Assembly: GCA_045542315.1 (NCBI GenBank)
Contig: JAZQKU010000075.1
Span: 3,700-67,699 of the forward strand
Reading direction: 5' to 3'
Source: Eubacteriales bacterium
GTDB taxonomy: Bacteria > Bacillota > Clostridia > Oscillospirales > RGIG5299
Length of the DNA stretch: 64,000 nucleotides
Below the pieces are notes generated by a model. That model saw nothing but the letters and a program-made list of their open reading frames with translations, had not been told where the DNA came from and did no database searches. How positions within the stretch are numbered: the first letter of the stretch is position 1; every line of letters starts with the position of its first letter. Below, in pieces: positions 4,800-29,018 of the stretch. Made by a program: the position numbers and the translations under genes.

Positions 4800-5705
4800 A
4801 TGAAAAAACTCACAGTTATCACACTCGTAATGGCACTTTTACTCGCACTTTGCTTTTCGGGTAATGCGGCGGCGCTTCCCGAGGGCTGGATCCACACCGA
4901 AGAGGGCGGTGCATCGGCAAACAACTTTTATTTAAACGATGACGGCTCCGTTTCAATGGGATGGGGCAACCCCGACGTTTATTGGGCAAACCTCGGCGTA
5001 GCCTACGATGTTTCGGAGTTTAACAACAACTACACCGCAACGGTTGACGTTTACGTTCCCTCAAAGGTAATAAACGGAGAAACCGTTATTACCGGTGCTC
5101 CCGTAATCGGCGTTAAAGCAAACTTTGACGGCGGCGTTGAGAAAAACTGGATCCCCTCCTTTGCCTTCAAGCTCGTAAACTACGAGGGAGCCCCCAATAT
5201 CGATCCTTCTGCGTTTGAAAACTGGGGCGGCACCTGGAACGTAGTTGAAATCTGGGACTGCGCCCTGACCGGAACCTCGGTTACCCCCTCCTGCACCTTC
5301 TTCTCCGACCTCAATATCGTTGCGGGCGGCTGGAATAAGGTAACTATCGTCGTTAAGGGCGACTACGTCGGCTGTGTTATAAACGGTCAGGTAGTTCTTG
5401 ATGCGGTTGAGATACTCAATGCAAACGGAAACTATTTCGTGCTCGGCTCAAACGGTGACTGCGGTGATAAGGCAAATATGCCCTCATACAAAAACCTTAT
5501 AATCAAATCAAATGATGATTCCGTTGCAACGCTCACGGCGTTTACCGTTGATGAAAACGCGGAAATTCCCGAAATTCCCAACCTCTATTTCCCCTCGGTG
5601 ACCACCAAACCCGAATCGAGCGAGCCTGCTCCCTCCACTCCCGATTCCTCGATAACCATTCTTCCTCCCGCTGAAAATAAGGGCGGCTGCGGAAACAAAG
5701 CATAA
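4800..5705 (+). CDS. secreted protein of unknown function
   Basis: N-terminal signal peptide (MKKLTVITLVMALLLALCFSGNAAA), a beta-rich body and a Pro/Ser-rich C-terminal tail. No family was recognised. Confidence 0.7.
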   Translation: MKKLTVITLVMALLLALCFSGNAAALPEGWIHTEEGGASANNFYLNDDGSVSMGWGNPDVYWANLGVAYDVSEFNNNYTATVDVYVPSKVINGETVITGAPVIGVKANFDGGVEKNWIPSFAFKLVNYEGAPNIDPSAFENWGGTWNVVEIWDCALTGTSVTPSCTFFSDLNIVAGGWNKVTIVVKGDYVGCVINGQVVLDAVEILNANGNYFVLGSNGDCGDKANMPSYKNLIIKSNDDSVATLTAFTVDENAEIPEIPNLYFPSVTTKPESSEPAPSTPDSSITILPPAENKGGCGNKA

Positions 5706-6164: not shown

Positions 6165-6494
6165 TTATTTGTGAATTATAACTCTTTTCGCGTAGATCTG
6201 ACCGGGATAGCTCATCATTATCTGACCGCTGTATTCCACCGTGATAACCGTGCCCTCGGAAATATCTTCTCTTGATGCGGACTCGCCGCCTTCAAAAAGA
6301 TAAACGGTGGCGTTGTCGGTAAGTGCCCAGAAGACCCCCGAAACATAGGTGCTTTCGGTGACGGTAAAATCAATATGATCGCCTATATCGTTTACCGTGC
6401 CGGTAAGGGTATATAATGGAGTGCTTTTTGCACAGCCCGCAACCGCAAGGCAGACGGCAACGAGCAAAACTGCCGTTAAAATTGCTTTTTTCAT
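6165..6494 (-). CDS. small lipoprotein of unknown function
   Basis: 109 aa. A signal peptide ends in the lipobox LAVAGC, followed by a small beta-rich domain. Confidence 0.7.
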   Translation of the reverse strand: MKKAILTAVLLVAVCLAVAGCAKSTPLYTLTGTVNDIGDHIDFTVTESTYVSGVFWALTDNATVYLFEGGESASREDISEGTVITVEYSGQIMMSYPGQIYAKRVIIHK

Positions 6495-6502
6495 TGTTTA
6501 CC

Positions 6503-7540
6503 TCATCTTATTCTCGGAAGTAAGCCGACCTTTTTATAGACCTTTGAAAGAACTCGGCAGGCAATGTAGGAGGCTCTTTCTGCGCCTTCCTTTATGCACT
6601 CCTCAAGATAAGCCTTGTCCTTCATAAGCTCGTCATAGCGCTCGCGAATGGGAGCAAGCGAATCGGCAACCGTTTCGCCCACAGCCATCTTGAAGTCGCC
6701 GTAGCCCTTACCTTGAAATTCGGCTTCAAGCTCGGAAATGGATCTGCCGGTGAAGGCGGACATAATGGTAAGAAGGTTGTTGATGCCGTCCTTACCCTCT
6801 TTATAGACTATCTCTGCGTCGGAGTCGGTGACCGCACGCTTGAATTTTCTCATAACGGTATCCTTATCGTCTAAAATGAGAACGTAAGCGTTCTGGTTTG
6901 CATCGGACTTGCTCATCTTTTTAGTGGGCTCGGCAAGCGATTTGACTCTCGCGCCGTAGGTGGGAATAAAGCTTTCGGGAACGTTGAAAACGTCGCCGTA
7001 AACGGAGTTGAAGCGAACGGCAATATCTCTTGCAAGCTCAACGTGCTGGCGCTGATCCTCACCGACGGGAACGACCTCGGTGTTGTAAAGCAGAATATCT
7101 GCCGCCATAAGCGAGGGATAGGTGAAAAGGCCTGCGTTTATATTGTCGGCGTTCTTTTGGGATTTATCCTTAAACTGCGTCATTCTCGAAAGCTCGCCGA
7201 ACATCGTGTAGCAGGAGAGGATCCACGAAAGCTCGGCATGCTCCGCAACGTGGCTCTGAATAAATACGGGGTGCTTTTTCGCGTCGATTCCGCAGGCGAT
7301 AAGGGAAGCCGCCATACCGAGGGTGTTTTTGCGAAGCTCGGCGGGATTCTGACGGACGGTGAGAGCGTGAAGGTCGGCAACCGAGAAGATGCTGTCGTAT
7401 TCGTCCTGAAGTATTTTCCAGTTCTTTATTGCTCCGAGATAGTTTCCGAGGGTGAGGTTGCCGCTCGGCTGAATTGCGGAAAACATTCTCTTTTGCTTTA
7501 CTTCCGCCGGCGCGTTTTGATTGTTTAACTGTTCGTTCAT
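6503..7540 (-). CDS. trpS: tryptophan--tRNA ligase
   Basis: Class I aaRS motifs TLGNYLGA (HIGH-like) and KMSKS, with overall TrpS-like sequence. The ATG at 7540 has an AAGGAG RBS, so the ORF-track start at 7588 is probably upstream of the real start. Confidence 0.9.
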   Translation of the reverse strand: MNEQLNNQNAPAEVKQKRMFSAIQPSGNLTLGNYLGAIKNWKILQDEYDSIFSVADLHALTVRQNPAELRKNTLGMAASLIACGIDAKKHPVFIQSHVAEHAELSWILSCYTMFGELSRMTQFKDKSQKNADNINAGLFTYPSLMAADILLYNTEVVPVGEDQRQHVELARDIAVRFNSVYGDVFNVPESFIPTYGARVKSLAEPTKKMSKSDANQNAYVLILDDKDTVMRKFKRAVTDSDAEIVYKEGKDGINNLLTIMSAFTGRSISELEAEFQGKGYGDFKMAVGETVADSLAPIRERYDELMKDKAYLEECIKEGAERASYIACRVLSKVYKKVGLLPRIR

Positions 7541-7633
7541 AAAAATATCTCCTTGCAATATGGGTGTTTTTGTTAAAATTTCTTGCACTTTTATTGAGTT
7601 TATAGTATTATATTATATAGAGATTAAAAAAGA

Positions 7634-7983
7634 AAGCGAGCAAACCCGTAAGCCGAGTTCTGTTCTATGCAATCATCTATCTCGAGCAGCCGTTACCGAC
7701 TGCCTCAAGCCACCATGGAAACGGGACGGGCAGCCCCATATGCTTCGCAGCGGTGTTGCTCCGGATAGGGTTTACAGGAAGCCTGTGTTACCATAGGCTT
7801 CGGTGAGCTCTTACCTCGCCTTTCCACCCTTACCTCGTAAACGAGGCGGTATATCTCTGTTGCACTTTCCCGGGAGTCGCCTCCGGCGGACGTTATCCGT
7901 TATCCTGCCCTTTGGAGCTCGGACTTTCCTCAACAGACGGTTTTTCAACGCTTGTCTGTCGCGACTGCTCGGTTTGCTCGCCG
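7634..7983 (-). ncRNA. rnpB: RNase P RNA, bacterial class A
   Basis: The minus-strand RNA reads GAGGAAAGUCCGAGCUCCAAAGGGCAGG ... GGUAAGGGUGGAAAGGCGAGGUAAGAGCUCACC ... ACAGAACUCGGCUUAC. P1 forms between 7971-7981 and 7636-7647. This is close to the E. coli M1 RNA universal core. Confidence 0.93.
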
Positions 7984-15875: not shown

Positions 15876-16022
15876 ATGGAAAACTATTGTGAAGAGTGTG
15901 GCGCAAGTTTGAAAGGTAGCTTTTATACAGATCCCTGGGAAGATGGCGACAATGATTACGGTTACTATACATGCAGACGTTGCGGTCACAAAAATATCGA
16001 CTGGGATAGCAGCGACGACTGA
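15876..16022 (+). CDS. 48-aa zinc-ribbon mini-protein (below the ORF-track cutoff)
   Basis: MENYCEECGASLKGSFYTDPWEDGDNDYGYYTCRRCGHKNIDWDSSDD carries two CxxC pairs. It lies between a consensus promoter and a UUCG-loop terminator. Confidence 0.55.
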   Translation: MENYCEECGASLKGSFYTDPWEDGDNDYGYYTCRRCGHKNIDWDSSDD

Positions 16023-16030
16023 ATACTTTG

Positions 16031-16060
16031 AAACGCACTCTCTTCGGAGGGCGTGTTTCT
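16031..16060 (+). terminator. rho-independent terminator (UUCG tetraloop)
   Basis: aaacgcactctc-ttcg-gagggcgtgttt with one mismatch, followed by a T-rich tail. Confidence 0.65.
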
Positions 16061-16190
16061 TGTCACCGAAAACCACGCGATAGTCGCGTGGTTTAAAGAA
16101 GGTTAACCGATGAAAGAAATCCTCCAAATATGTAATAATAGACTTGACCTGCCAGTCAAAGAATAAAAAACATATTTGGAGGATAAATCT

Positions 16191-16660
16191 ATGAAAAAAG
16201 TGGACATAGACAATAATAGTTTAGCACATACGAGTTGGAATTGCAAGTATCATATAGTGTTTGCGCCAAAATATAGACGAAAAGTTTTTTCGAAGGAAAA
16301 CGAATGGAAATACGAGAAATACTCCGCCAACTTTGCAAATGGAAAGGAGTGGAGATAATTGAAGGAGAAGTGTGTACAGATCACATACATATATTGGTGA
16401 GTATCCCGCCCAAAATGAGCGTTTCGGGGTTTATGGGATATCTCAAAGGGAAAAGCGCATTGCTGATATTTCAGAAATATAGAAATATGAAGTTTGCATA
16501 CCGAAACCGCGAATTTTGGTGTAAGGGATATTACGTAGATACCGTGGGGAAGAATACGAAAGCAATAAAAGAGTATATTGCAGATCAATTGAAGAGAGAT
16601 CAGGAGAGTGATCAATTAGCGATGTTTGACCCACGGGACCCATTTATGGGTGGTAAGTAA
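16191..16660 (+). pseudogene. tnpA: IS200-type Y1 transposase TnpA, interrupted by a -1 frameshift in a T6 run
   Basis: The N-terminal part (...SLAHTSWNCKYHIVFAPKYRRKVF) and the C-terminal part (MEIREILRQLCKWKGVEIIEGEVCTDHIHILVSIPPK...YYVDTVG) are in different frames. One extra T in the run at 16285-16290 would give a continuous KVFFEGKRMEIREIL. Confidence 0.85.
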
Positions 16661-16740
16661 CAATTGCATGGCTGGCAGGCCAATCTAAAGCGCACTTGTG
16701 CGCCGCCAGTAGTATTAGGGCTATGCCCGAAAATGAAATA

Positions 16741-16770
16741 CCCCCCGTTATACGCAATGTCATTAAGTTA
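16741..16770. repeat. left copy of a roughly 30-nt inverted repeat (partner at 29492-29523)
   Basis: The sequence is CCCCCCGTTATACGCAATGTCATTAAGTTA. The reverse complement of the partner is CCCCCCGTATAACGGCAATGTCATTAAGTTAA. Confidence 0.75.
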
Positions 16771-16810
16771 GAGGGTATCTTTGTAAAAGATACCCTCTAA
16801 CTTTCTTTTG
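16767..16810 (+). terminator. strong hairpin with a T-run at the IS200 right end
   Basis: Perfect 16-bp stem gttagagggtatcttt / aaagataccctctaac with loop gta, followed by tttcttttg. Confidence 0.75.
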
Positions 16811-16899
16811 TATTAGAAATGTCTGTTAAGTTAAGAAATTCGCAAAGAAAAAAAGCCACGTATACTCTATTGTAAAGTATCTTTTCAGCGTTTTTCTGT

Positions 16900-18610
16900 C
16901 TGAAGCTCGATTATTTCTTAATTTTAAGCAACATAAAAGAGCAAGAATTACTCCTTGCTTCATTTTTTATAAAAAATAACTATGCTGCTACGCGATAGGC
17001 AAATCCAACAAAATGCTTGGTTCTTAGATTGCGTTTATCTCTTCTTCCGGGACGTATGGGTTCTGTATATTTTTCAATTTCAATAATCAATTCTTTAAAA
17101 TCTGTTTTTAGTTTTTTATAAAAAAGTCTACACAAATGAACAGCCATCGTGTAATCGACCTTATAATTATAAACGGCATTATCTCGTTTGTGAATTTTTG
17201 CATTGCTCACTATTCGACTACAATAATTATACATAATTATTGATGAATATATCTCTTGTTTTACTAAATCCTCTTTTTTGCAATGGAAATTAATTAATCC
17301 TACTACATACTTTACTTCTCGAAAAGACGTCTCTATTCCCCAACGCATATGATAAAGCGCTTTAATCTCTGACATGGAAAATTTACTGCGGGGTAACGAA
17401 GTTATAACGGTTTCATATTCACCGGTATCTAACATAAAGCGAACTACACGAAAACTCATTGCATAGGGAGACCCGAAATCCCAATTTCTCATAACTGTGT
17501 TGGAACTATAGCACTTATTTTTATTGTGGATTTGTATAAATATCCTGTTATGCATTTTATCTTCTTTGGTTTGAGTTGTAGTTAACTCAAAAGAAATGTC
17601 TTTATCAAGTTCTATCATCGGAAGCTTCGAAATATCACGAAAAGCTCCCTTTCCTTGCTTGACTCGCATTAAAAAGTCTACGTTTTCCGTATTAATTAAA
17701 TGAGCAATCAAATTATATCCTTCATAACCGCGATCGGCAATAATTATATTATTCCCTTGAAATGCATTACGCTTTAACATCGTTATCAATGCTTCGTGTT
17801 CGTTAGATTTCGGAACAGGTTGTAGTAATATATCTTTGAAGGTCCTATTTAGTACATCGTATAAGGCATTTAAGTGAGTTTGGTTAAATCCTTTTTCATT
17901 TTTCAGAGTTGTAATAAAGCTTTCTAAATCAGGATTGCGAAAATGATTGATCTTCGACCCATCAACCGCAAAAACTCTATATCCTTTATATTTTTCTCTA
18001 TCGTTACTTAATGAGTTGAATTGCTTTAATATTGTTTCAAAAGCCTGATATTGTATTTTTGAACGTTGCTGCACAAACGCAGATGAGGTGACGTCAATTT
18101 TATTTGTCTTCCCAAAGTCATACAACTCTTTCTTTAGTGAGCCACCTTCCATCGATATAATAAGCTTAATGACCTTTTCTAATGTCAATTTACGGTTCCG
18201 TGTGAAATCGGTGGTGGGATTTTTAACAAAATCCTGTTTGTTTGCAATTACGAATTCAATTGCCTTTTCTAAATTTTGATGAATGTTTTTTACAATAGAC
18301 ATTATTTCCTTTCCGTATGCAGGTGCGGTTTAGAACTATAAAAGGGATACTTTAAATATCCGAAAGTTCTGTTCCGGCAGAACCTTTTTTCTTTTATAGT
18401 GGGGGTTTTAACACAAAAACGCCCTTACATACAAAAAACACTTGAAACATTACTGTGATGTAAACGTGTAAATAAATCACATTGTTTACAAGCAAGTGCT
18501 TTTTTAAAATGTAAGAGCGCAACACCTCAACCATATATCATGGAATTCTTGCCTATTCGATTTTTGTTTTGTACATTATACTCTATTATAGCATTTGATG
18601 TCAAGGAAAA
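16900..18610 (-). mobile_element. IS4-family insertion sequence; boundaries not resolved
   Basis: Contains the transposase CDS and a terminator-like hairpin (agcaag...cttgct) just past its stop. A possible TTGACA-18 nt-TATAAT promoter lies on the minus strand at 18575-18604. I could not identify terminal inverted repeats by eye. Confidence 0.4.
16980..18302 (-). CDS. IS4-family DDE transposase
   Basis: 440 aa with FAVDGS, ADRGYEGYNLIAHL and YHMRWGIETSFREVKY (Y-x2-R-x3-E-x6-K signature of the IS4 family). Confidence 0.85.
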   Translation of the reverse strand: MSIVKNIHQNLEKAIEFVIANKQDFVKNPTTDFTRNRKLTLEKVIKLIISMEGGSLKKELYDFGKTNKIDVTSSAFVQQRSKIQYQAFETILKQFNSLSNDREKYKGYRVFAVDGSKINHFRNPDLESFITTLKNEKGFNQTHLNALYDVLNRTFKDILLQPVPKSNEHEALITMLKRNAFQGNNIIIADRGYEGYNLIAHLINTENVDFLMRVKQGKGAFRDISKLPMIELDKDISFELTTTQTKEDKMHNRIFIQIHNKNKCYSSNTVMRNWDFGSPYAMSFRVVRFMLDTGEYETVITSLPRSKFSMSEIKALYHMRWGIETSFREVKYVVGLINFHCKKEDLVKQEIYSSIIMYNYCSRIVSNAKIHKRDNAVYNYKVDYTMAVHLCRLFYKKLKTDFKELIIEIEKYTEPIRPGRRDKRNLRTKHFVGFAYRVAA

Positions 18611-18673
18611 ATGTTATTATTATAATCGATTGGATTTTAAATTTACGCTATTTTTCATTTCTGTAAAAATATG

Positions 18674-18702
18674 TTGAATTTAGAAATTTAATGTGGTATA
18701 AT
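18674..18702 (+). promoter_or_regulatory. near-consensus sigma-A promoter upstream of the giant surface-protein gene
   Basis: TTGAAT at 18674-18679, a 17-nt spacer ending in TGG, and TATAAT at 18697-18702. Confidence 0.65.
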
Positions 18703-18708
18703 ATATAT

Positions 18709-18921
18709 GCCAAACCAAATGAATAATTGAAAGCAAGAACTATTTTTATCTTTATAGGGATAACTATAGTTTTTTTGCGTTGTATCCAAAACGAATTTGA
18801 TAAAAATGCAAATTCCCATTGGATATAGCGTAGAGTTGTTCTTGCTTTTTCAGTTGGTTTGGCGACTATCGGAGTTTGCATTTTAATGCGGCTGCTTCGG
18901 TAGTCGCATTTTTTATTTTTT
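18709..18921 (+). promoter_or_regulatory. structured leader ending in an intrinsic terminator, immediately before the RBS of the 2810-aa gene
   Basis: There are two perfect long-range complements: 18709-18718 with 18854-18863 (10 bp), and 18730-18740 with 18838-18848 (11 bp). The terminator stem is 18885-18895 / 18900-18910 with a UUCG loop and a T-run to 18921. An alternative pairing joins 18862-18872 with 18897-18907. Confidence 0.55.
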
Positions 18922-18934
18922 GGAGGAAAAATAA

Positions 18935-21900
18935 ATGCAATTTTGGAAAAACCTCAGACGATTAATTTCGTTCTTGCTGTGTATTGTAATGATTTCAACG
19001 ATGCTGCCTATGGGTATTTTTACAGTTAGTGCGGAAACCACAGATGGCGATTATATCTATACAGTATCAAATGGTGAGGCAATTATAATCGGGTACAACT
19101 CCATCAGTGGCAGTGTTGTTATACCCTCAACTTTAGGTGGATATCCTGTAACGGCTATAGGCGAGTATGCTTTTGAAAGTTGTTGGGGCTTAGAAGGTAT
19201 TATAATTCCAGACAGTATTACAATTATAGGCGATTACGCGTTCTCTTATTGCGGTGATCTTGCAAGTGTTATACTAGGTAATAGTGTTATAACTATAGGA
19301 GATTCTGCATTCTCTGATTGTTGGGAACTTAAAAATATAACAATTCCCGACAGCGTTATAACTATAGATGATTATGCATTTGCTTATTGTTCCAACCTTC
19401 AGAGCGTCACCTTGGGCAAGAGTGTTGCAACCATAGGCTCTGGAGCATTCTCTAGTTGCGATGGCCTTGAGAGTATTACAATTCCCGATAGCGTTATAAC
19501 TATAGGCAATTCTGCATTTAGGAATTGTTATAACCTTGAGAGTATTATAATTCCAGATAGCGTTACGACTATAGGCAGTTATGCATTTGCTAGTTGCTCT
19601 AACCTTGAGAACATCACTGTCGATAATAATAACAATTATTATTCTTCATTCGATGGGGTGTTATTTAATAAAGATAAAACAACACTTTTATCTTATCCTA
19701 AAGGTAATAAAGCAACGTCTTATACAATTCCCAATAGTGTTACAACTATAGAAGATGAGGCATTTTCTAATTGCGATAACCTTAATAATATTATAATTCC
19801 CGATAGTGTTACAACTATAGCCGACAGAGCGTTATCTTATTGTGACAATCTTAGGAGTGTTACAATTTTTAATGGCGTTATAACTATAGGCAATTCTGCA
19901 TTTAGGAATTGTTATAACCTTGAGAGTATTATAATTCCAGATAGCGTTACGACTATAGGCAGTTATGCATTTGCTAGTTGCACTAACCTTGACAGTGTAA
20001 CACTGGGAAAGGGTGTTGAAATCATAGGCTCTAGTGCATTCTCCAATTGTGATACCCTTCAGAATATCACTATTGATAATAATAACAATTATTATTCTTC
20101 AATCGATGGCAGTCTGTTTGATAAAGATAAAACAACACTTATATCTTATCTTGCAAGCAATACAGCAACGTCTTATACAATTCCTAATAGTGTTGTAGCT
20201 ATAGGTGATTCTGCATTCTCCGGTTGCGAGAATCTTGAGAGTATTACAATTCCCAATAGTGTTGTAACTATAGGTAGGTATGCATTTGAGAATTGTTCTA
20301 ACCTTGAAAGTGTTACAATTCTCAATAGCGCTATAAACATAGGCCATGGTGCATTTGATGGTTGTTCTAACCTTAAAAGCATAAGCAAACCGGCTGATAC
20401 TGATGAGTTTGCAGGAGGATGCGGCACAGAAACAGATCCGTATTTAATTGTAACAGAAGAACATCTTGACAATGTTCGTGATTATCTTTATGCACATTTT
20501 AAAATGATTGCGGATATTGAGTTTGCCGATAGTATAAATTGGGAACCGATTGGCGATGATTACAAACCCTTTACAGGCACCTTTGACGGAAATGGATGTA
20601 AGATTAAAAACCTTTATATTTATACTGAATATACCGGTGGAAGCGGTGTCGGACTTTTTGGTTATATCAAAGAAGGCACTGTAAAAAATCTCGGATTAGA
20701 AAACGGAAATATAACTGCGACCGAGGAAGAATGGTCCTCTTTACCCGGAGGAGGAATGGGAGTTGGTAGGGATCCGACAGTATACGTAGGCAGCATTGCA
20801 GGAATTGTAGAGAAAGGCACAATAACTAACTGTTACAATACAGGTAATGTATCTGGTTTAAATCCCGCAGATCCTTATACAGGCGGTATTGTGGGCGATT
20901 TATATGGAGGAACAATATCTGATTGCTATAATACCGGTAACATTACAGGAGAGGGTTGGGCTACTGGTGGTATTGCGGGTACTGCTTCAGGCACAATAAC
21001 CAATTGTTATAATGTAGGTAATGTTTCTGCAACTTCAACTTACGAATTTTACGTAGGTGGTATTATTGGCTCTGCTTCAGGCACAGTTTCTAATTGCTAT
21101 TATTTAGATAATATTTCTGTTGGTGTAGGGAACGGAACCGACACTTGCACAAAATGCTCTTGCGAAGAAATGCAACATCAATCAACCTTCGTTGGTTTTG
21201 ATTTTAACGAGGTTTGGGTTATTAATAGCAATATTAAGTATAAATTTCCTCAATTGCAAAACAATCCTTACATTGTTGAACTGTTATCAATTGAAATAAC
21301 CGTAAAACCAACCAAACTCACATATATCGAAGGTGAACCCATTGACCCGACAGGAATGGTTGTTACGGCTTACTATAACAATAACACTTCGAAAATTGTC
21401 ACGGATTACGCCGTTAGCGGTTCCACCGCTAACCCCGGAACTTCAACAATTACCATAACCTACGGCGGTAAAACCGCAACATTTAACGTTACGGTTGAAA
21501 CAAAGCAACTCACATCTATTGCGGTAACTACAAAACCCACCAAATTCACCTATCTTGAAGGCGAATCCTTTGACAAAACCGGTATGGTTGTTACCGCATA
21601 TTATAGCAATGGCACTTCCGAAATCATAACTGACTACGCCGTAAGCGGTTACGATTCAAATCCAGGAACTTATACAATTACCATAACCCATGGTGGAAAG
21701 ACTGCAACATTCAACGTTACAGTTGATGCAAAGCGACTCACATCTATTGCAGTTACAACAAAACCCAATAAGCTCACTTATTTTGAAGGCGAAAATTTTG
21801 ATGCCACAGGGTTGGTTGTCACGGCGTATTATAACAATAACTCCTCTGAAGTTATAAATAATTACACCATAAGTGGCTACGATTCTACGATTGGGAAAAA

Positions 21901-24900
21901 AGACATTGCAGTTACTTATAACGGTAGAGTCTACTATTTTTCCGTCGAAGTTATACCTATAGAAATTAAATTCATAAAGGTTACTACAGAACCAAGTAAA
22001 CTCACCTATGTCGTAGGCGAAGATTTTGATGCCACAGGTATGGTCGTTACGGCTTATTATAATAATGGTGCCTCTGAAGTTATAACCGATTACACCATAA
22101 GTAGTGATCCGTTTTCTGTTGTTGGTACTTATATGATCACTATAACTTATCGTGATAAAACTGATATTTTGATTGCTACGGTTATTCCTGTAGAACTCAT
22201 TTCAATAAAGGTTACCACAAAACCTAATCAACTCACCTATCACGAAGGAGAAGCCTTTAAAACTACAGGTATGGTTGTTACGGCTTATTATAACAATGGC
22301 ACCTCTGAAGTTATAACCGATTATACTGTCAGCGGTTATAATTCTGATTCTGGTACTAACAGCATTACTGTAGCTTACTGTGGTAAGACTGACAGTTTTG
22401 AACTCGAGGTAATTCCGCTTACTTCAATAGAAGTAGCTACGAAACCTACAAAACTTATATATCTCGAAGGCGACAACTTAAGCACAAGCGGTATGGTCGT
22501 TGTTGCGTATTACAGTGATGGCTACTCTATAAAAATAAGTGGGGCTAACATTCCTTATGGTTTTTACACTGTCTCCGGCTATACCTCCACTCCGGGCACA
22601 AAGACGATCACTGTAGCTTACTGTGGTAAGACTGACAGTTTTGAGGTTGAAGTAAGTCCAATTACTTCAATTACCGTTGGCAGACCAAATAAACTCACTT
22701 ATCTCGAAGGTGAAGATTTTGATGCTACGGGTATGGAGATTTATGTCTATTGCGCCAATCTTCAACTACCGGGTGATACTGTTCGAAATTATTATATAAG
22801 CACAACTGATTACACCATTAATGGCTATACTTCTACACCCGGTATTAAAACTATTACTATTACTTGCTGGGGTAAAACCGACAGTTTTGAGGTTGAAGTC
22901 CTTCCGCTTACTTCAATAGAAGTAACTACGAAACCTACTAAGCTCACCTATCTCGAAGGCGAAGATTTTGATGCTACGGGTATGGTTGTCACGGCTTATT
23001 ACAATAATTATATTCCTGTAGTTATAACTGATTATATAGTAGATGGGTACGATTCTGAATCAGGCACTAAAAACATTACTGTAACTTTCAATGGTAAAAC
23101 CGATAGTTTTAAAGTCGATGTAAGTCCGGAGGGACTCACCTCAATAGCTGTCGCTAAAAAACCAAGCAAGCGCACATATCTTGAAGGCGAAAGTTTTGAC
23201 GCTACAGATATGGTTGTTGTTGCGTATTACAGTGATGGCTACTTTGAACGAATAACAGACTACACCGTTAGTGGTTATACCTCTAAACCTGGTACTAAAA
23301 CAATTACTGTCAAATTTAACGGTAAAACTGATTCTTTTTCCGTTGTTGTCAATGATAAGGTTCCATCAACTAAAGTCTACTATTCAGATATCTTCTACGG
23401 ATATGATGCCTCGTATTTATCCAATGATGTTGGGTTAAAAATGCATTATTCGGATACCCATATTATTGAAAGAATATATAACGAGTATGCTGCAAGTAAC
23501 CAGAGTTTTTGGACTCAGTTTGAAACTGCGTTGGATGCAAGCCTCCCAGTGTTTAAATTGGATTTTAGACAGTATGCAATGTTGATGTCAGACACATTCG
23601 GAGGCACCGACTATATTTATCAGAAATCTTTAGATAGTGCCAATTTGGTATTTGCCCAAAATATATTCAAAAGCTACAGGGGGGCTGTTTTATCTGAAGA
23701 TGCAGATACATTTGGCGCTGCTAAAAAACTTTATAAGCGCGTAGAGTCACTGCTTAAAGTTTATGATACTTTCGAAAAAAACTACGACGTATATGAGATG
23801 ACAGACTACGAAGTCTTTTATGAAATGTTTGAGTATGTTAAGGGCCAAGGAATTTTTGTTTTTGTTGGTAGTGCAAACATAACCAAAATTGAAGAAGTAG
23901 TTCTAAAAGACGTTAAAAAATATATGGATATGTTTGATAAAGCAGCAACCGCGGCAGAAGTTGCTCAAGCAATTCTTATAGCCGCTATGATGGAAGATGT
24001 TAGAATGGAAATTGTTGATGAAGTTCTTGCAGCTGCTCCCACAGATTCAGTCATATACGATGGAATGTCGCGCTTAAAGAAACAACTCTCTGGAGGCTTT
24101 GTTACCTATTTTGCCGAAAACTATTTGAAAGAGGTCTTTTTGGATACTCTTGTTAAAGGAATTACTAAGCCCATAGTAGATACAATTAGAGAAGAACACG
24201 GTACATATGCTCTTTGTGTTGATGCGCTGTCAGTGGCATCGTGGGTATTCTTTGATCGTATATTTGATATTCCAGATCTTGGAGAAATGACAACCCAAAA
24301 GGTTTTGGGAGATTATGTTAACGGTTTTCACGAGATTCTTAAATCAAAATGTAATGCATTTAATGAGCAATTTACCGTAGATGATATATCAAAATTTGAA
24401 GCACTATTCGATGGTTATATTGCAGCTACAAATGCAGCACTTGAAGAGTCTAAAAAATTCCAATTGCCGAGCAACGAAGAAGATCTTCTTATTGCTACTG
24501 TTTTGTGGCAAAATTATGATTATGATGATTATATAAACGATATTATCAAAGAAATTGAAAATACTCCTGTTTCCGAAAGAAAAATTAAGTTTTTTGAGGA
24601 ATGGGACTATAACTTAGGAGATAAGTTCAGGGTTGCATCAGATACTATTGAAAAAAATTCAATATATATGTTTAACGGCGATTTTTTGGCAAATATGTAT
24701 ATTAGTTTTATTGTATATGATGATATATTTACAATATTTGCCGATGAAACAACACAAATAAGTATAAAGGGGGATTTAAATGTCTATAATCCATATAACG
24801 GTTATATCTATACTGATGATGGTCACTATAATCTTTTTATAACGATTCCTGAAGGAAAAACCTTGCGAATTGGTGGTAATTTTACAGTTGGTGGCGCAAA

Positions 24901-27367
24901 AGCACTAACATATATACGCAATTATGGAACGTTAATTTGTGAAAAAAATGTAAGTTTTGAAGAAAATTTGGGGCTATATAGACCTTATGAAGATTCAAAA
25001 ATAATTGTAAAGGGTAATTTGAGCATAGGTGACGGTATTTATGTTTATTACGGCACAATAGAATTTGCGGGAACCGAGCAACAAGAAATATATTTGCCTA
25101 AAGCACACAATGTCGAAGTTACAAATCCCAAGGGTATAAAGTATTTGACAGATTTAAGGTTGTATGGAGAATATAACCTTAATGGAAATCCATTACATTC
25201 AAATGGATTTTATACCATTTTGGAGCGGGCGCAATATTCCAAATTAGATGGTTCGGATTTTCAAGAAGTTATAATCAACAGCTATTATGATTTTATACTG
25301 GATTTTAATATTAAAGGCAATGTATATATTGCGAATAACATCACTGTAAATATTCCCGAGGAGGCTACTGTAGAAATTGACGGAAATATTACAATTGGAG
25401 ATGACTACGCCAGCACAGCACGTTTAATTAACGAAGGAACATTAATTTGTACAGGAAATATACATGACGACGGGTATGGAAGATTTTCTCAATCCGAAGA
25501 CAGTAGGTTGATTTTCAAGGGCAAAGAGTTGTCAATTGCGATAGGTGAGGGTACTATAGAATTTGCAGGAACCGAACAACAGCATATATACGGTTTTACA
25601 TATTTTGATAATATTGAAGTTACAAATCCAAATGGCATAAAGTACCACGGTCAGGTACGTGTGTCCGGGAAATACAACCTCAATGGTAACCCGTTAGATG
25701 TTAATGTCTACAATACTTTTTTACACAAAGGAGCTGATTTGGATGATTCGGAATTTCAAAGAGTTTATTTAGACGATGGGTATATAGTAAAAAATAGTAT
25801 AAATGCCGATATATATGTAACGTGTCCAGATAATGGTGCATTTATTGAATTCACAAACAGTGACAACCATAATATTATTATTAATGGAAATTTGTGTGTA
25901 CATAACGATTATGATTATTCAAGTAATCGTTACCCTATCAACATATATATTTCCGCAGAGACCACAGTAACGATCAATGGAAGTATTATGATTGATGGTG
26001 AATTTGGAAACACTTATGTAAACAATTATGGAACATTGATTTGTGAGCAAAATATCGCTTTCAAGAATAACGTCAAATATATACCATCCGCAGAATCTAA
26101 ATTGATATTAAAAGGGGATTTGAATTTTGGCTCAAATAACTATCAACACATCACCAGTGGCATAATAGAATTTGCAGGAACAGAGAAACAAGAGGCGAAC
26201 TTGGATTCAGCGAATATTGTTGAAATAAGTAATGCATCCAATGAAGGCGTAGTTTTTACCTCGAAAATTTCTGTTTATGAACTTTTCGACCACAAGGGCA
26301 ACAATTTCACCCTCTATAACAACGGCTCAGGTTCAACTTTTGTGGATTACGACGGCGACGGTATGCTTGATAATGTAGATCCGTATCCCACAATTGATAA
26401 TCACAAGCACGATTACGCCAACCAAGGCGCTTGCACCATTTGCGGAGCATATAGAGCAAAGTTTTCAGGTGCATCACTTACGCTTGAGGATAATATTGCA
26501 GTTAACTTTAAGGTTGATCCCAAACAATTCGAAGGAACCGAATACAGCAATCCCTACGTTGTATTTACCTTCAACGGAAATCAATTCACAGTAACAGATT
26601 ACACTATTGATTCAAATGGACGATATGCGTTTACATTCAGCGATATTGCACCGCGTATGATGAATGATTCCGTCGTTGCCACATTGTATGTCATATACAA
26701 CGGAGAACCGGTTGAATGTCAAACAAGAAGCTACAGCGTTAAAGAGTATTGCTATAATATGCTCTCTCGCTGCAACGAAGGTGGCGTATATGCCAACAAC
26801 GAAAAGTTTAAGGCATTGCTCGTGGACTTGCTTAACTACGGAGAAGCAGCTCAAATTTACGGCAATTATAACACCGATACACTTGTAACGGCAGATCTGA
26901 CCGAAACGCAAAAAGGTTGGGCAACAGATGCAAAACCGAATTTATCCACAGTCCAGAGTTTGACGTATAAAACAATCGAAAATCCCTCTGTAACTTGGAA
27001 AGCAGGCGGCTTGTTGCTCGAAGACGCGGTAACAATGAGGTTTAAATTTGCTACAGATTCCGTGGATGGCTTAACTGTAAAATTCTATACCGATAGTAAC
27101 CCCACCGGCTGGACGGTTGATGATAGCGAATTCGTTGAAACGACGGGTGGATATTATGTTTACTTTGACGGTTTAAAAGCTCGTCAAATGCGAGAAACTG
27201 TTTATATAACTGTTTATCGTGGCGACACTGCAGTTAGCAATACGGTCAGCTATAGCATTGAGTCTTATGCATATGCGAAACAAAACGATTCAAATGAGAA
27301 TTTGACGGCGTTATTGGAAGCAATGATGAAATACGGAGACTCGGCAGATAACTATATAAATGGATAA
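18935..27367 (+). CDS. giant secreted multi-repeat surface protein (BspA-type LRR, GLUG-like region, nine Ig-like repeats, helical region, three large repeats, duplicated C-terminal domain)
   Basis: 2810-aa ORF with RBS GGAGG and an N-terminal signal peptide. The LRR consensus is IPDSVTTIGxxAFxxCxNLxSITI. GGIVG/GGIAG/GGIIG motifs are present. There are nine copies of LTSIxVTTKPTKLTYLEGExFDxTGMVVTAYYxNG...GTKTITVxYxGKT. No LPxTG motif, SLH domain or C-terminal TM segment is visible. Confidence 0.9.
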   Translation: MQFWKNLRRLISFLLCIVMISTMLPMGIFTVSAETTDGDYIYTVSNGEAIIIGYNSISGSVVIPSTLGGYPVTAIGEYAFESCWGLEGIIIPDSITIIGDYAFSYCGDLASVILGNSVITIGDSAFSDCWELKNITIPDSVITIDDYAFAYCSNLQSVTLGKSVATIGSGAFSSCDGLESITIPDSVITIGNSAFRNCYNLESIIIPDSVTTIGSYAFASCSNLENITVDNNNNYYSSFDGVLFNKDKTTLLSYPKGNKATSYTIPNSVTTIEDEAFSNCDNLNNIIIPDSVTTIADRALSYCDNLRSVTIFNGVITIGNSAFRNCYNLESIIIPDSVTTIGSYAFASCTNLDSVTLGKGVEIIGSSAFSNCDTLQNITIDNNNNYYSSIDGSLFDKDKTTLISYLASNTATSYTIPNSVVAIGDSAFSGCENLESITIPNSVVTIGRYAFENCSNLESVTILNSAINIGHGAFDGCSNLKSISKPADTDEFAGGCGTETDPYLIVTEEHLDNVRDYLYAHFKMIADIEFADSINWEPIGDDYKPFTGTFDGNGCKIKNLYIYTEYTGGSGVGLFGYIKEGTVKNLGLENGNITATEEEWSSLPGGGMGVGRDPTVYVGSIAGIVEKGTITNCYNTGNVSGLNPADPYTGGIVGDLYGGTISDCYNTGNITGEGWATGGIAGTASGTITNCYNVGNVSATSTYEFYVGGIIGSASGTVSNCYYLDNISVGVGNGTDTCTKCSCEEMQHQSTFVGFDFNEVWVINSNIKYKFPQLQNNPYIVELLSIEITVKPTKLTYIEGEPIDPTGMVVTAYYNNNTSKIVTDYAVSGSTANPGTSTITITYGGKTATFNVTVETKQLTSIAVTTKPTKFTYLEGESFDKTGMVVTAYYSNGTSEIITDYAVSGYDSNPGTYTITITHGGKTATFNVTVDAKRLTSIAVTTKPNKLTYFEGENFDATGLVVTAYYNNNSSEVINNYTISGYDSTIGKKDIAVTYNGRVYYFSVEVIPIEIKFIKVTTEPSKLTYVVGEDFDATGMVVTAYYNNGASEVITDYTISSDPFSVVGTYMITITYRDKTDILIATVIPVELISIKVTTKPNQLTYHEGEAFKTTGMVVTAYYNNGTSEVITDYTVSGYNSDSGTNSITVAYCGKTDSFELEVIPLTSIEVATKPTKLIYLEGDNLSTSGMVVVAYYSDGYSIKISGANIPYGFYTVSGYTSTPGTKTITVAYCGKTDSFEVEVSPITSITVGRPNKLTYLEGEDFDATGMEIYVYCANLQLPGDTVRNYYISTTDYTINGYTSTPGIKTITITCWGKTDSFEVEVLPLTSIEVTTKPTKLTYLEGEDFDATGMVVTAYYNNYIPVVITDYIVDGYDSESGTKNITVTFNGKTDSFKVDVSPEGLTSIAVAKKPSKRTYLEGESFDATDMVVVAYYSDGYFERITDYTVSGYTSKPGTKTITVKFNGKTDSFSVVVNDKVPSTKVYYSDIFYGYDASYLSNDVGLKMHYSDTHIIERIYNEYAASNQSFWTQFETALDASLPVFKLDFRQYAMLMSDTFGGTDYIYQKSLDSANLVFAQNIFKSYRGAVLSEDADTFGAAKKLYKRVESLLKVYDTFEKNYDVYEMTDYEVFYEMFEYVKGQGIFVFVGSANITKIEEVVLKDVKKYMDMFDKAATAAEVAQAILIAAMMEDVRMEIVDEVLAAAPTDSVIYDGMSRLKKQLSGGFVTYFAENYLKEVFLDTLVKGITKPIVDTIREEHGTYALCVDALSVASWVFFDRIFDIPDLGEMTTQKVLGDYVNGFHEILKSKCNAFNEQFTVDDISKFEALFDGYIAATNAALEESKKFQLPSNEEDLLIATVLWQNYDYDDYINDIIKEIENTPVSERKIKFFEEWDYNLGDKFRVASDTIEKNSIYMFNGDFLANMYISFIVYDDIFTIFADETTQISIKGDLNVYNPYNGYIYTDDGHYNLFITIPEGKTLRIGGNFTVGGAKALTYIRNYGTLICEKNVSFEENLGLYRPYEDSKIIVKGNLSIGDGIYVYYGTIEFAGTEQQEIYLPKAHNVEVTNPKGIKYLTDLRLYGEYNLNGNPLHSNGFYTILERAQYSKLDGSDFQEVIINSYYDFILDFNIKGNVYIANNITVNIPEEATVEIDGNITIGDDYASTARLINEGTLICTGNIHDDGYGRFSQSEDSRLIFKGKELSIAIGEGTIEFAGTEQQHIYGFTYFDNIEVTNPNGIKYHGQVRVSGKYNLNGNPLDVNVYNTFLHKGADLDDSEFQRVYLDDGYIVKNSINADIYVTCPDNGAFIEFTNSDNHNIIINGNLCVHNDYDYSSNRYPINIYISAETTVTINGSIMIDGEFGNTYVNNYGTLICEQNIAFKNNVKYIPSAESKLILKGDLNFGSNNYQHITSGIIEFAGTEKQEANLDSANIVEISNASNEGVVFTSKISVYELFDHKGNNFTLYNNGSGSTFVDYDGDGMLDNVDPYPTIDNHKHDYANQGACTICGAYRAKFSGASLTLEDNIAVNFKVDPKQFEGTEYSNPYVVFTFNGNQFTVTDYTIDSNGRYAFTFSDIAPRMMNDSVVATLYVIYNGEPVECQTRSYSVKEYCYNMLSRCNEGGVYANNEKFKALLVDLLNYGEAAQIYGNYNTDTLVTADLTETQKGWATDAKPNLSTVQSLTYKTIENPSVTWKAGGLLLEDAVTMRFKFATDSVDGLTVKFYTDSNPTGWTVDDSEFVETTGGYYVYFDGLKARQMRETVYITVYRGDTAVSNTVSYSIESYAYAKQNDSNENLTALLEAMMKYGDSADNYING
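19491..19981 (+). repeat. two perfect 107-bp direct copies inside the LRR-coding region (19491-19597 and 19875-19981)
   Basis: gcgttataactataggcaattctgcatttaggaattgttataaccttgagagtattataattccagatagcgttacgactataggcagttatgcatttgctagttgc occurs identically twice, offset by 384 bp (128 codons). Confidence 0.9.
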
Positions 27368-27386
27368 TTAGGAAAGGAGAAAGATT

Positions 27387-27515
27387 ATGAAAAACTACAA
27401 AGCACCGGAAGTGGAAATTAATATTTTCGATATAGAAGATATTATTACAGTCAGCTCAACCGGTTCGGGAACAAGCTCAAACCCGGACGAGTTACCTGAT
27501 GATGAGTGGGAATAA
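27387..27515 (+). CDS. 42-aa acidic peptide gene, unannotated (below the ORF-track cutoff)
   Basis: The RBS AGGAAAGGAGA lies 20 nt after the giant-gene stop. The peptide is MKNYKAPEVEINIFDIEDIITVSSTGSGTSSNPDELPDDEWE. A strong terminator follows. Confidence 0.6.
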   Translation: MKNYKAPEVEINIFDIEDIITVSSTGSGTSSNPDELPDDEWE

Positions 27516-27555
27516 GGTTTTAGCAAAAAGAAAAAATAAGCTTTAAGCAATAAAT

Positions 27556-27595
27556 AAACTCCCGAAATTCATAATGAATCTCGGGAGTTTTTCTT
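27556..27595. terminator. bidirectional terminator between convergent genes
   Basis: aaactcccga ... tcgggagttt is a 10-bp stem, followed by a T-run and preceded by an A-rich stretch. Confidence 0.8.
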
Positions 27596-27624
27596 GCGTC
27601 ATTATTAAAATTTATATTTTTCTA

Positions 27625-28803
27625 TCAATCTACTTTTTCATATATATACGGTGTAGAAAAATATCTGCGGCGGTGGCCTTCTAATACTTCTTCTAACGAG
27701 TCTGTGTCAATTTCAATAGATAAATCCTCATGAGCTATGTTGTTTGTGCCATCAGGAAAAACAACAAGATTATTATAGTTTTTTTCTTTATACGTCACAT
27801 CTCCTGTATATTCCAAAGAAAGATAAACTTTATCATCAAAAGCACCGTTTTTGTTATAACGATCTGCAGAATAGATAGTTATTAATTTGACTGAAAGATC
27901 GGGATTTTCGGTTGGAGTATAAAAATACGTTCCGACATAAGAAAGAGCTTTGAATTTGGCATCCTCGTTTTCTTCTAACATTGAAAGCTCATTATTTTCA
28001 AAATTAGCCTTAATATCGTCTATTGTAGTTTTTGAAACGTCTTTTGCTGTCATAAATTGGGGCAAACCCGAAACAGTTATTACTTTAACGGTTTCATTGG
28101 GAACAGCGTTAAGCCTTATGGAATCGTCTAAATCATACTCTATCATAACGGTTACTTTATCGCCGTTTTTAAGCTTGTAACTGTTATCTGCTGAAAATCT
28201 GCAAAGCTGTGTAAATGGATTCTCGGAATTATTTATTATTTCTAAACGGGCATAACCACTAACGCCCGTTATTTCAAACTCAACGTCCTTGAAAACGTCT
28301 ATAACCTCGGCTTCGGGTAAATTTTCAACCGTGAACGTTTTACTGCCGCATTTGATCTTAGATGCGGCATCTCCTCTTGCCAAAATTGTAACGGTAACGG
28401 TATCGCCGTTGCTTAAGTTCTCTGTCTTATCGCAGCTGTACGATATTGTGTCGGAATACTCCTCGTATTTCATTTCCCATTTAAAATATTCCTCGAAGTT
28501 CATCTCATTGGGAGCTTCGCCGATAATTTTAGAAATAAGCGCTCTGTCATCAAACGAGACGTAAGCTGTGCCGTAACCGTCGTTACCGTCAAAGGTGACT
28601 TCAACGTAATCAAAGGTGTTTATCTTTGAGGAAACTGCCATTACAATTAAAATCGGTACCAATATAGCCACCGCGATAACGCCGATAATGGTCGCCTTCA
28701 TCGGAGTGGTCCACTTGCTCTCGCCCTGAGCCTTTTTTGCAGCCTCGCAGCTGCATTTTTCAAATAATGGTATCTTGTTACCGCAGTGTTCACAGTATTT
28801 CAT
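27625..28803 (-). CDS. membrane-anchored protein: N-terminal zinc ribbon, one TM helix, repeated extracellular beta-rich domains
   Basis: 392 aa. The N-terminus is MKYCEHCGN...CSCEAAKK, followed by a hydrophobic helix (ATIIGVIAVAILVPILIVMAV). Two similar modules each contain NGDxVTV. Confidence 0.7.
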   Translation of the reverse strand: MKYCEHCGNKIPLFEKCSCEAAKKAQGESKWTTPMKATIIGVIAVAILVPILIVMAVSSKINTFDYVEVTFDGNDGYGTAYVSFDDRALISKIIGEAPNEMNFEEYFKWEMKYEEYSDTISYSCDKTENLSNGDTVTVTILARGDAASKIKCGSKTFTVENLPEAEVIDVFKDVEFEITGVSGYARLEIINNSENPFTQLCRFSADNSYKLKNGDKVTVMIEYDLDDSIRLNAVPNETVKVITVSGLPQFMTAKDVSKTTIDDIKANFENNELSMLEENEDAKFKALSYVGTYFYTPTENPDLSVKLITIYSADRYNKNGAFDDKVYLSLEYTGDVTYKEKNYNNLVVFPDGTNNIAHEDLSIEIDTDSLEEVLEGHRRRYFSTPYIYEKVD

Positions 28804-28814
28804 TGTTATGCCTC

Positions 28815-29018
28815 CTAATTCTTTTTCTTGTATTCGTCAAACTTGAATATAAACGGCTCATAGCCGGGTAGACCGATAATAGCCTCACCTATTTGCAGGC
28901 GGGATATATCCCAATCCTCTACAACGTTGCCTTCACGCTGATTAGAATGCGTATATTCTTTTCCTAAAACATCGCCGCAATGCTTGCAGCGCACCTTACA
29001 AACACGTAAAAATTTCAT
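28815..29018 (-). CDS. 67-aa hypothetical protein (Cys-rich N-terminus)
   Basis: RBS AAGGAG. The gene sits 11 nt upstream of the 392-aa gene, whose own RBS GGAGG lies in that spacer. The N-terminus is MKFLRVCKVRCKHCGDV. Confidence 0.55.
   Translation of the reverse strand: MKFLRVCKVRCKHCGDVLGKEYTHSNQREGNVVEDWDISRLQIGEAIIGLPGYEPFIFKFDEYKKKN

Follow-up and report, generated by a model that had tools for sequence, protein, structure and literature searches.

The intergenic region at 18674-18934 of a 64,000-nucleotide stretch from an Eubacteriales bacterium (assembly GCA_045542315.1, contig JAZQKU010000075.1; hereafter the window, meaning this whole stretch) is probably an intact, complete copy of a conserved cis-acting RNA leader that controls the giant leucine-rich repeat (LRR)/immunoglobulin-like (Ig) gene next to it by transcription attenuation. 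Judged from its homologues, the leader is a widespread, previously unannotated RNA of about 200 nt, present in gut Clostridia and in some of their phages. Its key feature is a set of three pairings that are mutually exclusive and each conserved in the family: a terminator, an antiterminator, and a long-range pairing between the tip of an upstream arm (P3) and a short downstream segment (C). The components in the window, all on the + strand, are as follows.

18674..18702, + strand: sigma-70 promoter, TG-extended, from a promoter scan; predicted start at or adjoining G18709
18709..18722, + strand: P1 5' strand, GCCAAACCAAAUGA, pairing with 18850-18863
18729..18738, + strand: P1b 5' strand, GAAAGCAAGA, pairing with 18840-18849
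18739..18770, + strand: P2 hairpin, ACUAU/AUAGU plus UUAUCUU/GGGAUAA
18773..18835, + strand: P3 long arm, with basal helix 18773-18789/18819-18835
18793..18815, + strand: P3 apical hairpin, made of strand A (GAAUUUG, 18793-18799), loop AUAAAAAUG (18800-18808) and strand B (CAAAUUC, 18809-18815)
18840..18863, + strand: 3' strands of P1b (18840-18849) and P1 (18850-18863)
18863..18875, + strand: antiterminator 5' strand, CGACUAUCGGAGU, pairing with GCUUCGGUAGUCG (18894-18906), the terminator loop and 3' strand
18871..18884, + strand: segment C, GGAGUUUGCAUUUU, complementary to the P3 loop and 3' strand AAAAAUGCAAAUUCC (18802-18816)
18885..18910, + strand: intrinsic terminator, an 11-bp stem AAUGCGGCUGC / GUAGUCGCAUU with a UUCG loop, followed by a T-run (18911-18921)
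18922..18937, + strand: ribosome-binding site (RBS) GGAGG (18922-18926) and start codon ATG (18935)
18935..27367, + strand: putative controlled gene for a 2810-aa secreted protein with LRR_5 (BspA-type), Big_3 and GLUG domains

The promoter consists of a -35 box (TTGAAT, 18674-18679), a 17-nt spacer and an extended -10 box (TGgTATAAT, 18694-18702), which together give 10 of 12 matches in addition to the TG extension. Downstream, an outer helix joins gccaaaccaa (18709-18718) to its complement ttggtttggc (18854-18863), and an inner helix joins aaagcaagaac (18730-18740) to gttcttgcttt (18838-18848). The initial annotation had placed the promoter, these two long-range complements, the UUCG hairpin with its T-run, the RBS and the ATG at exactly these positions. 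The 5' end of the transcript should fall within the P1 helix, given the start position that we infer from the promoter.

The predicted fold of 18709-18934 is far beyond chance, and the region is not a chance palindrome. The + strand reaches -86.6 kcal/mol, whereas 200 dinucleotide-shuffled sequences give -45.0 +/- 4.3 (z = -9.6; none of the 200 as good), and the - strand reaches only -58.7 kcal/mol. G-U pairs, possible in the + strand RNA only, make up 13 of the 77 pairs predicted by RNAfold. The minimum-energy structure contains 18864-18875/18894-18905 together with an inner helix, 18876-18881/18886-18891. The alternative pairing of 18862-18872 with 18897-18907, previously proposed as a competitor of the terminator stem, is real and longer than had been described. 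The window holds a single copy of the element. This copy spans the full covariance model of the family (model R1, positions 1-211, built from 38 genome copies); its score is 212.8 bits for the + strand, compared with 29.2 for the - strand.

At least about 170 homologous copies were found by pattern scans combined with the covariance model; all copy-based counts given here (171, 154, 143, 134 and 124) refer to the matches listed, the metagenome set being a lower bound. A scan of GTDB genomes with the pattern GCCAAACCAA-N(3-14)-AAAGCAAGAAC returned 56 loci, with at most two exact-pattern matches per genome; 44 of the loci could be aligned over the whole element. Almost all of these 44 are metagenome-assembled genomes, assigned to Clostridia, Christensenellaceae, Eubacteriales, Oscillospiraceae and similar taxa and obtained from human, ruminant and rabbit gut. 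A metagenome scan, with a pattern that fixed only the P3 tip and segment C, returned at least 120 gut and rumen contigs, of which at least 118 matched the profile. Ten IMG/VR viral contigs carry a diverged subfamily, which was recovered by means of a 20-mer query taken from the 3' strand of P1 plus the linker. A diverged full copy was located by the covariance model in the GenBank phage scaffold MT835503.1 (unverified, human-faecal); this scaffold was matched when a consensus-like copy was used as the BLAST query, and a copy of the viral subfamily gave no match in the phage collection. The intergenic region of the window had no BLAST match among plasmids or GenBank phages.

Two alignments were used to evaluate the fold, A5 with 56 genome and viral copies and A6 with 101 copies, mostly from metagenomes. 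In A5, 97.7% of cells are paired, 43 of the 60 pairs have changed on both sides, and the covariation score is 0.327 versus about 0.05 for controls with slid partners. The corresponding values for A6 are 93.8% of cells, 48 of 60 pairs (1252 compensatory cells) and a score of 0.570 versus about 0.06, and no shuffle reached the observed covariation in either alignment. A check for covariation among homologous leaders, which had been suggested from the window sequence, thus returned it in abundance.

Because the scan patterns had fixed some segments (the 3' strands of P1 and P1b in the genome scan, B and C in the metagenome scan), each helix was judged on the set in which it was free. P1 is paired in 98.7% of cells in A6, which was not ascertained on P1, and single pairs there take the forms UA:40/CG:34/AU:15 and UA:37/CG:34/AU:19. 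Compensatory changes occur in 8 of 8 model pairs of P1b in both alignments, double changes in 8 of 8 pairs of P2 and in all 11-13 pairs of the P3 basal helix. The terminator is paired in 99.2% of cells in A6, with double changes in 9 of 10 pairs. The sequence of the P3 apical hairpin is at least 90% invariant. P2 is the least certain arm, since a GGG...CCC alternative register seems to suit some subgroups when the alignments are judged by reading. The family also includes a second type of P1, GUCACAC/GUGUGAC.

Compensatory and G-U changes in the arms imply selection at the level of RNA. They bear directly on the proposal that the 30-nt inverted repeats are the ends of a miniature inverted-repeat transposable element (MITE), and on the related idea of an invertible switch of the cwpV type. 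Such a DNA-level element would account for the long inverted repeats and for the occurrence of the unit at many genomic sites; in one clade the unit even lies within a larger cassette with inverted ends inserted in terminator hairpins, and the target in the window is a surface-protein gene, as in phase-variable systems. We nevertheless consider it highly improbable. In addition to the changes in the arms, both fold energy and model score are strongly asymmetric between strands. Conservation passes about 35 nt upstream of the repeats, through the promoter, and about 55 nt downstream, through segment C and the terminator, so that the arms are not element ends. The flanks (atatat before gcc, and gactat after ggc) are not direct repeats and thus give no target-site duplication. 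The 64-kb window holds one copy, itself lacking plasmid and phage-collection matches. MITEs of the Correia, RUP and ERIC types are likewise palindromic, about 150 nt long, intergenic and able to affect expression of a neighbour. In the leader, by contrast, the arms are RNA helices under compensatory selection, the boundaries do not fall at the repeats, orientation to the downstream gene is fixed, and neither target duplication nor a multi-copy burst was seen. Inversion as such was also considered as a separate candidate and rejected: none of the 171 copies has an inverted core, and all are collinear with the model.

An intrinsic terminator lies between the promoter and the start codon and is conserved with covariation, and a mutually exclusive antiterminator helix is maintained by selection. 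Antiterminator pairing is found in 97.2% of A5 cells and 94.5% of A6 cells. At positions free of the search patterns its pair types are UA:46/AU:20 and AU:74/GC:7, and variants such as CUAU/GUAG, CAGU/GCUG, CAAU/GUUG and CGAU/GUCG occur. These terminator positions covary with the 5' strand of the terminator as well, which makes the covariation three-way.

The third pairing involves segment C (GGAGUUUGCrUUUUU), which matches the loop and 3' strand of the P3 tip (18802-18816) in a complementary stretch of about 15 bp. This pairing is kept in 99.6% of cells in A5. Where the tip has changed, the change is compensated in C and not in the 5' strand of the hairpin itself, as in loci L065 (U-A to C-G) and L039 (A-U to G-C). 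When the region after P1 was folded with C free, the antiterminator fold was obtained in 108 of 134 distinct members and was 3.2 kcal/mol better on average; with C blocked, the terminator fold was obtained in all 134. The duplex between the tip and C is worth -18.4 to -18.7 kcal/mol, versus -4.0 for the consensus apical hairpin. A rough sum that allows for an uncomputed pseudoknot penalty would place the state with a captured tip and a terminator approximately in balance with the state with a closed tip and an antiterminator. The relay of the switch appears to run through the tip of the long arm and not through the closing helix, whose 3' strand the initial annotation had noted to be overlapped by the alternative pairing.

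Conservation of sequence is concentrated in the same segments. Positions that are at least 90% invariant in the diverse set comprise the outer helix of P1 (GCcAAAc / GUUUgGC), a brief AAUA stretch between the 5' strands of P1 and P1b, the entire P3 tip (GAAUUUG-nUAaAAAUG-CAAAUUCC), the linker and segment C (GACuauCGGAGUUUGCGuUUUU), and the terminator (GUGCG....CUUCGG....CGCAc). P1b, P2, basal P3 and the junctions keep pairing and not sequence, and P1b, P2 and the P3 base also keep their length. P1/P1b strands measure 26-31 nt and P3 strands 24-25 nt; interquartile ranges are 2-3 nt. This pattern is not that of an aptamer with a ligand pocket at its junction. The layout of aptamer, antiterminator and terminator that had been read from the window is thus upheld in part: the domain, terminator and antiterminator are conserved and covary in about 170 homologues, and the classic aptamer is not borne out, as the junctions are unconserved.

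These observations also limit the likelihood of a small-molecule riboswitch in which a ligand, cyclic di-GMP (c-di-GMP) or another global metabolite, stabilizes a pseudoknot formed by the A-rich loop of P3 with the U-rich tail. The overall layout is riboswitch-like, the conserved residues are concentrated at a possible meeting point of the P3 tip and the tail, one locus (L036) has a tandem copy, and the diversity of controlled genes resembles that seen with second-messenger riboswitches. Cyclic-di-GMP riboswitches are known upstream of clostridial adhesins and surface proteins. We regard this explanation as quite unlikely, because the three-way junction and the internal loops are unconserved in sequence, the alternative Watson–Crick pairing already accounts for every invariant segment, the controlled genes share no metabolic theme, and no Rfam riboswitch matches even at E <= 10.

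At the gathering threshold, Rfam 15 matched only RNase P across the whole window and nothing on the leader, in line with the initial annotation, in which the domain was not recognized as a known riboswitch class. At E <= 10, the region 18300-19000 yielded only chance sub-threshold matches, for example to miRNA and snoRNA models, the best of which on the element scored 19.5 bits against a cut-off of 50, and the leader was also without a match in 18 diverse homologous loci. The earlier suggestion of c-di-GMP as a candidate ligand accordingly lost its footing, as neither GEMM nor any other Rfam model matched. The c-di-GMP-I and c-di-GMP-II (GEMM) riboswitches of clostridial adhesin, pilus and flagellar genes resemble the leader in preceding large surface proteins and mixed genes, in acting through a transcription terminator and in their possible tandem arrangement; they differ in architecture, and neither RF01051 nor RF01786 matched even at E <= 10. 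Sequence strings of the motif had no match in the papers searched or in supplements of the human-microbiome RNA catalogue, although unnamed entries of large catalogues may still contain it.

The promoter and the downstream gene are constant parts of the unit across the family. A sigma-70 promoter is present in 137 of 143 copies with enough upstream sequence and is TG-extended in 100. The distance from the end of the -10 box to the first paired G of GCCAAAC is 6 nt in 126 copies and 7 nt in 11, and since this distance is fixed, the RNA should begin at the base of P1. On the other side, 154 of 171 copies have a callable open reading frame (ORF) with an RBS on the same strand. Its start lies within 30 nt of the element in 110 of the 154 and within 60 nt in 126, as expected for the attenuator in front of a gene that had been proposed for the window. 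The orientation of the leader to this ORF is fixed.

The downstream genes are mutually unrelated and have no common metabolic theme. Among 124 non-redundant proteins, the Pfam families found include zinc ribbons (11), LRR_5 (9), Flg_new (6) and EcoRI-like methylases (6), and more rarely SHOCT (3), Ltp superinfection-exclusion lipoproteins (2), SPFH (2) and sigma factors of the extracytoplasmic function type (2); the majority have no Pfam family. A regular-expression heuristic detected a lipoprotein-like signal peptide in 45 of 151 downstream proteins. The LRR_5 proteins are of the same type as the product of the giant gene in the window. A homologue search with the first 400 residues of the giant protein matched only generic LRR proteins, at no more than 52% identity, so that no orthologous leaders could be compared by way of the protein itself, and no exact record was found for the giant protein or for the transposase encoded upstream of the leader. 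Upstream neighbours of the leader copies are unrelated housekeeping genes (gyrA/B, EF-G, EF-Tu, smpB, RNase R and others), and genes for tRNA or transfer-messenger RNA are often nearby.

Two loci contain a pair of leaders. In L036 the copies are in tandem (2003-2217 / 2265-2475), and the upstream one is strongly diverged, with a P1 of the GUCACAC type; in L166 they form a close pair (4229-4446 / 6369-6573), each preceding a different gene. Such loci, and copies that lack a nearby ORF, would also fit an independent gene for a stable trans-acting small RNA (sRNA) that functions by base pairing or protein sequestration, with the neighbouring gene expressed by incidental read-through only. The consensus promoter and strong terminator of the unit, the burial of the 5' end in a helix, which should favour stability, and the invariant single-stranded apical loop and linker, which could act as seeds, are consistent with this idea. 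We find it unlikely. In 126 of the 154 copies the U-run is followed within 60 nt by a same-strand RBS and ORF, and this occurs before unrelated genes; a competing antiterminator that is conserved with three-way covariation would be purposeless in a purely trans-acting sRNA; and the intramolecular pairings fully explain the invariant seeds. A stable terminated RNA of about 200 nt that additionally acts in trans as an sRNA would be compatible with the attenuator.

A phage connection raises another possibility. In the IMG/VR phages, the leader and a lipoprotein or zinc-ribbon gene immediately precede the small and large terminase genes, which is a typical position for a moron. The region of lambda PR'/tR' has the geometry of a promoter, an RNA of about 200 nt and a terminator. 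The leader has this geometry as well, lies just upstream of the terminase genes in the phage copies and contains a conserved A/T-rich, -10-like GAATAA early in the transcript, all of which would suit a late-promoter or processive-antitermination module of phage type (as in lambda PR'-6S RNA-tR' and its Q protein, HK022 put or Bacillus EAR), in which the RNA or a partner protein makes RNA polymerase resistant to terminators and no local hairpin is switched. This is very unlikely, however, since most copies are chromosomal and adjoin housekeeping genes, the viral matches are confined to a single small set of related contigs, the unit in those phages is separated from the terminase genes by a lipoprotein or zinc-ribbon gene, and a local covarying antiterminator would be unnecessary. 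The lambda PR'-6S RNA-tR', HK022 put, Bacillus EAR and LoaP leader systems share with our element a constitutive promoter, an RNA of about 200 nt that is terminated unless the terminator is overcome, and, for some copies, a phage context. The leader differs in its conserved local antiterminator hairpin and in its mostly chromosomal location. No Q, LoaP or NusG-like gene was seen beside leader copies, although no systematic search was made.

In scaffold MT835503.1 (locus L187, 335-2829), the leader is followed by a gene for an EcoRI-like adenine methyltransferase and then by a GmrSD-N/HNH nuclease gene, a gene pair that looks like a restriction or defence pair under putative leader control. The IMG/VR phage contig L058 carries a DUF3800-VIII RNA (RF03075, 69.2 bits) at 5474-5541, about 1.2 kb downstream of its leader.

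We hypothesize that attenuation operates as follows. The strong TG-extended promoter would start the RNA at the first base pair of P1, and the first 155 nt or so fold into a three-arm scaffold of P1-P1b, P2 and P3. The scaffold is followed by the antiterminator strand CGACUAUCGGAGU, segment C, the UUCG terminator with its U-run and finally the RBS. If the P3 tip is closed, C would be free to pair with the terminator loop once this is made, the antiterminator would win and the polymerase would enter the gene. If C instead invades the P3 tip, with the A-rich loop as a toehold, the terminator would form, an RNA of about 200 nt would be released and the gene would be off. Because the two long arms are approximately equal in length, the scaffold would hold the P3 tip beside the emerging 3' tail, and this proximity would make the choice sensitive to anything that binds or stabilizes the tip and tail region. 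Given the unconserved junctions and unrelated controlled genes, we favour a factor acting in trans (protein or RNA), or else a signal that is global or kinetic, such as pausing at the U-tract that follows C, over a pathway-specific metabolite. We rank a ligand-stabilized pseudoknot of loop and tail second, and processive antitermination third, as the factor that biases the choice.

The proposed leader resembles the known attenuators of Firmicutes (T-box, PyrR, BglG/LicT-RAT and the platforms of transcriptional riboswitches), which also have a structured promoter-proximal leader, a terminator immediately upstream of the RBS, an antiterminator that competes with it and overlaps its 3' strand, and an upstream anti-antiterminator pairing that decides between them. 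It differs from them in that no Rfam model of those families matches it, and in that it has no specifier or T-box sequence, RAT or PyrR site, or conserved ligand-pocket junction. Its relay would pass by way of the long-arm tip, which a scaffold of fixed length and variable sequence would keep close to the 3' tail, and it appears to control unrelated accessory genes rather than one pathway.

Several points weigh against attenuation by this route. Start site, termination and read-through are deduced for every copy. Since the tip and C hardly vary, the compensatory events that support their pairing are few (3 pairs), and this pairing would be a pseudoknot of uncomputed energy when P1 is closed. 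About 10-17 copies have no nearby ORF, which, like the L036 tandem, would equally suit an sRNA gene. The collection scans themselves fixed the P1/P1b 3' strand in genomes and B and C in metagenomes, and fitting the A5 and A6 alignments to the covariance model inflates their percentages of paired cells; even so, the slid-partner controls and pair-type numbers are far from the observed values. Finally, conservation of CUUCGG could partly reflect the stability of the UUCG tetraloop.

More tentatively, the family may represent a new class of sensory leader, a riboswitch or a protein-responsive ribo-regulator, that moves as a promoter-switch-terminator module together with single accessory genes. 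The genes possibly placed under such a sensor would be those for surface LRR proteins, lipoproteins, zinc-ribbon membrane proteins, superinfection exclusion and restriction-modification. If so, the leader would define a horizontally spread regulon, in which dozens of unrelated mobile genes are under one common signal, and finding its effector would reveal the signal to which the mobile genes of these bacteria respond. The leader adds an abundant and well-supported structured RNA family to gut Clostridia, including Christensenellaceae-type lineages whose regulation is barely known, and offers one handle on the switching of unrelated accessory genes with roles at the surface, in the envelope, in defence and as prophage morons. 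The three-tier switch is specified at the nucleotide level and could be examined directly by mutation and compensation, and the module could serve the engineering of gut anaerobes as a compact, portable expression switch.

Promoter, leader and terminator together behave as a portable expression module that is reused before many different genes. Reused or "putative mobile" promoters have been described as highly similar promoter regions before non-homologous genes, within and between genomes (PMC3575422). The unit shares with mobile promoters and phage morons the occurrence of accessory genes with their own promoter and terminators, located between core genes or before terminase genes. It differs in that the reused part is a covarying RNA switch of about 200 nt with a terminator, conserved across many species-level genomes.

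A larger conserved cassette encloses the leader and its downstream gene in one Christensenellaceae-type clade (L056 4490-5264); it is also present in L026, L025, L043, L047, L010, L040, L038 and L185. The left end of the cassette consists of ..GCTCTTCCCaTAGGGATTTAAAT and a terminator, followed by the promoter, leader and a variable ORF. The right end is a 3' module of about 120 nt with a hairpin (GUGUAGCACACUAUACUUUGC..), a terminator and an inverted AAATCCCTAAGAG end; the cassette end sequence is ..CTCTTnnnTTAGGGATTT. The ends are flanked by perfect inverted repeats that are specific to each locus and carry A- and T-runs (AAAAACGGCAAAGAATA...TATTCTTTGCCGTTTTT in L026; AAAACCGCCGACG...CGTCGGCGGTTTT in L056), so that the cassette appears to have entered the loop of a terminator hairpin of the host. 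No transposase was found inside the cassette.

Upstream of the leader, the window contains an IS4-like insertion sequence (IS) at 16888-18422. It encodes a 440-aa DDE_Tnp_1 transposase (16980-18302, - strand) and has candidate ends at 16888-16899 and 18411-18422, with inverted repeats GCGTTTTTCTGT / ACACAAAAACGC. The transposase is a singleton in a collection of 15 billion proteins, and its distant relatives are annotated as IS1675-family and occur on Lactococcus plasmids. The leader was considered as a possible part of this IS and rejected as such: the IS appears to end at 18422, 284 nt before the RNA, and because about 170 other homologues adjoin unrelated genes, the leader is independent of it. 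A phage island was also rejected, as the neighbours in the window are housekeeping or unknown genes. A leader peptide or small ORF was discarded as well: the ATG at 18707 is not conserved and coincides with or precedes the predicted start, and stop-free stretches vary in strand and length among members. A Type III toxin-antitoxin system (ToxIN-like) was excluded on the grounds that the RNA has no tandem repeats and the downstream genes are unrelated; neither ToxN nor AbiE is among the listed Pfam families of these genes.

Between the IS and the leader, a near-perfect palindrome of about 76 nt with A- and T-runs occupies 18431-18506, and a perfect-consensus promoter (TTGACA, 18 nt, TATAAT) is found on the - strand at 18604-18575. 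A terminator-like hairpin on the + strand at 18366-18383 has no + strand gene upstream. On the far side of the IS4-like element, a 5'-truncated ORF for an IS200-type Y1 transposase (16304-16660; Pfam Y1_Tnp match from profile position 27) is followed by an 18-bp perfect palindrome at 16765-16803, and housekeeping genes lie beyond the truncated gene. Early in the coding sequence of the giant gene, GTTCTTGCT (18960-18985) is complementary to the P1b 5' strand. This repeat (I3, 73% over 26 nt) may be due to chance, and it cannot be a feature of the family because the downstream genes differ.

Directly downstream of the giant gene, the region 27388-27592 contains an ORF of 42 codons that has an RBS (MKNYKAPEVEINIF...) and, after it, a terminator-like hairpin at about 27560-27592. 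The next gene (27625-28803) encodes a 392-aa protein that is a singleton in the protein collection. From about 16000 to 29000, a region that includes the giant gene, the IS copies and neighbouring unknown genes, GC content is low (0.28-0.44, compared with 0.45 for the whole window), and this low GC together with the singleton 392-aa protein suggests a recently acquired island. Elsewhere in the window, the RNase P RNA matched in Rfam is of bacterial class A and lies at 7633-7980 on the - strand (275.7 bits).

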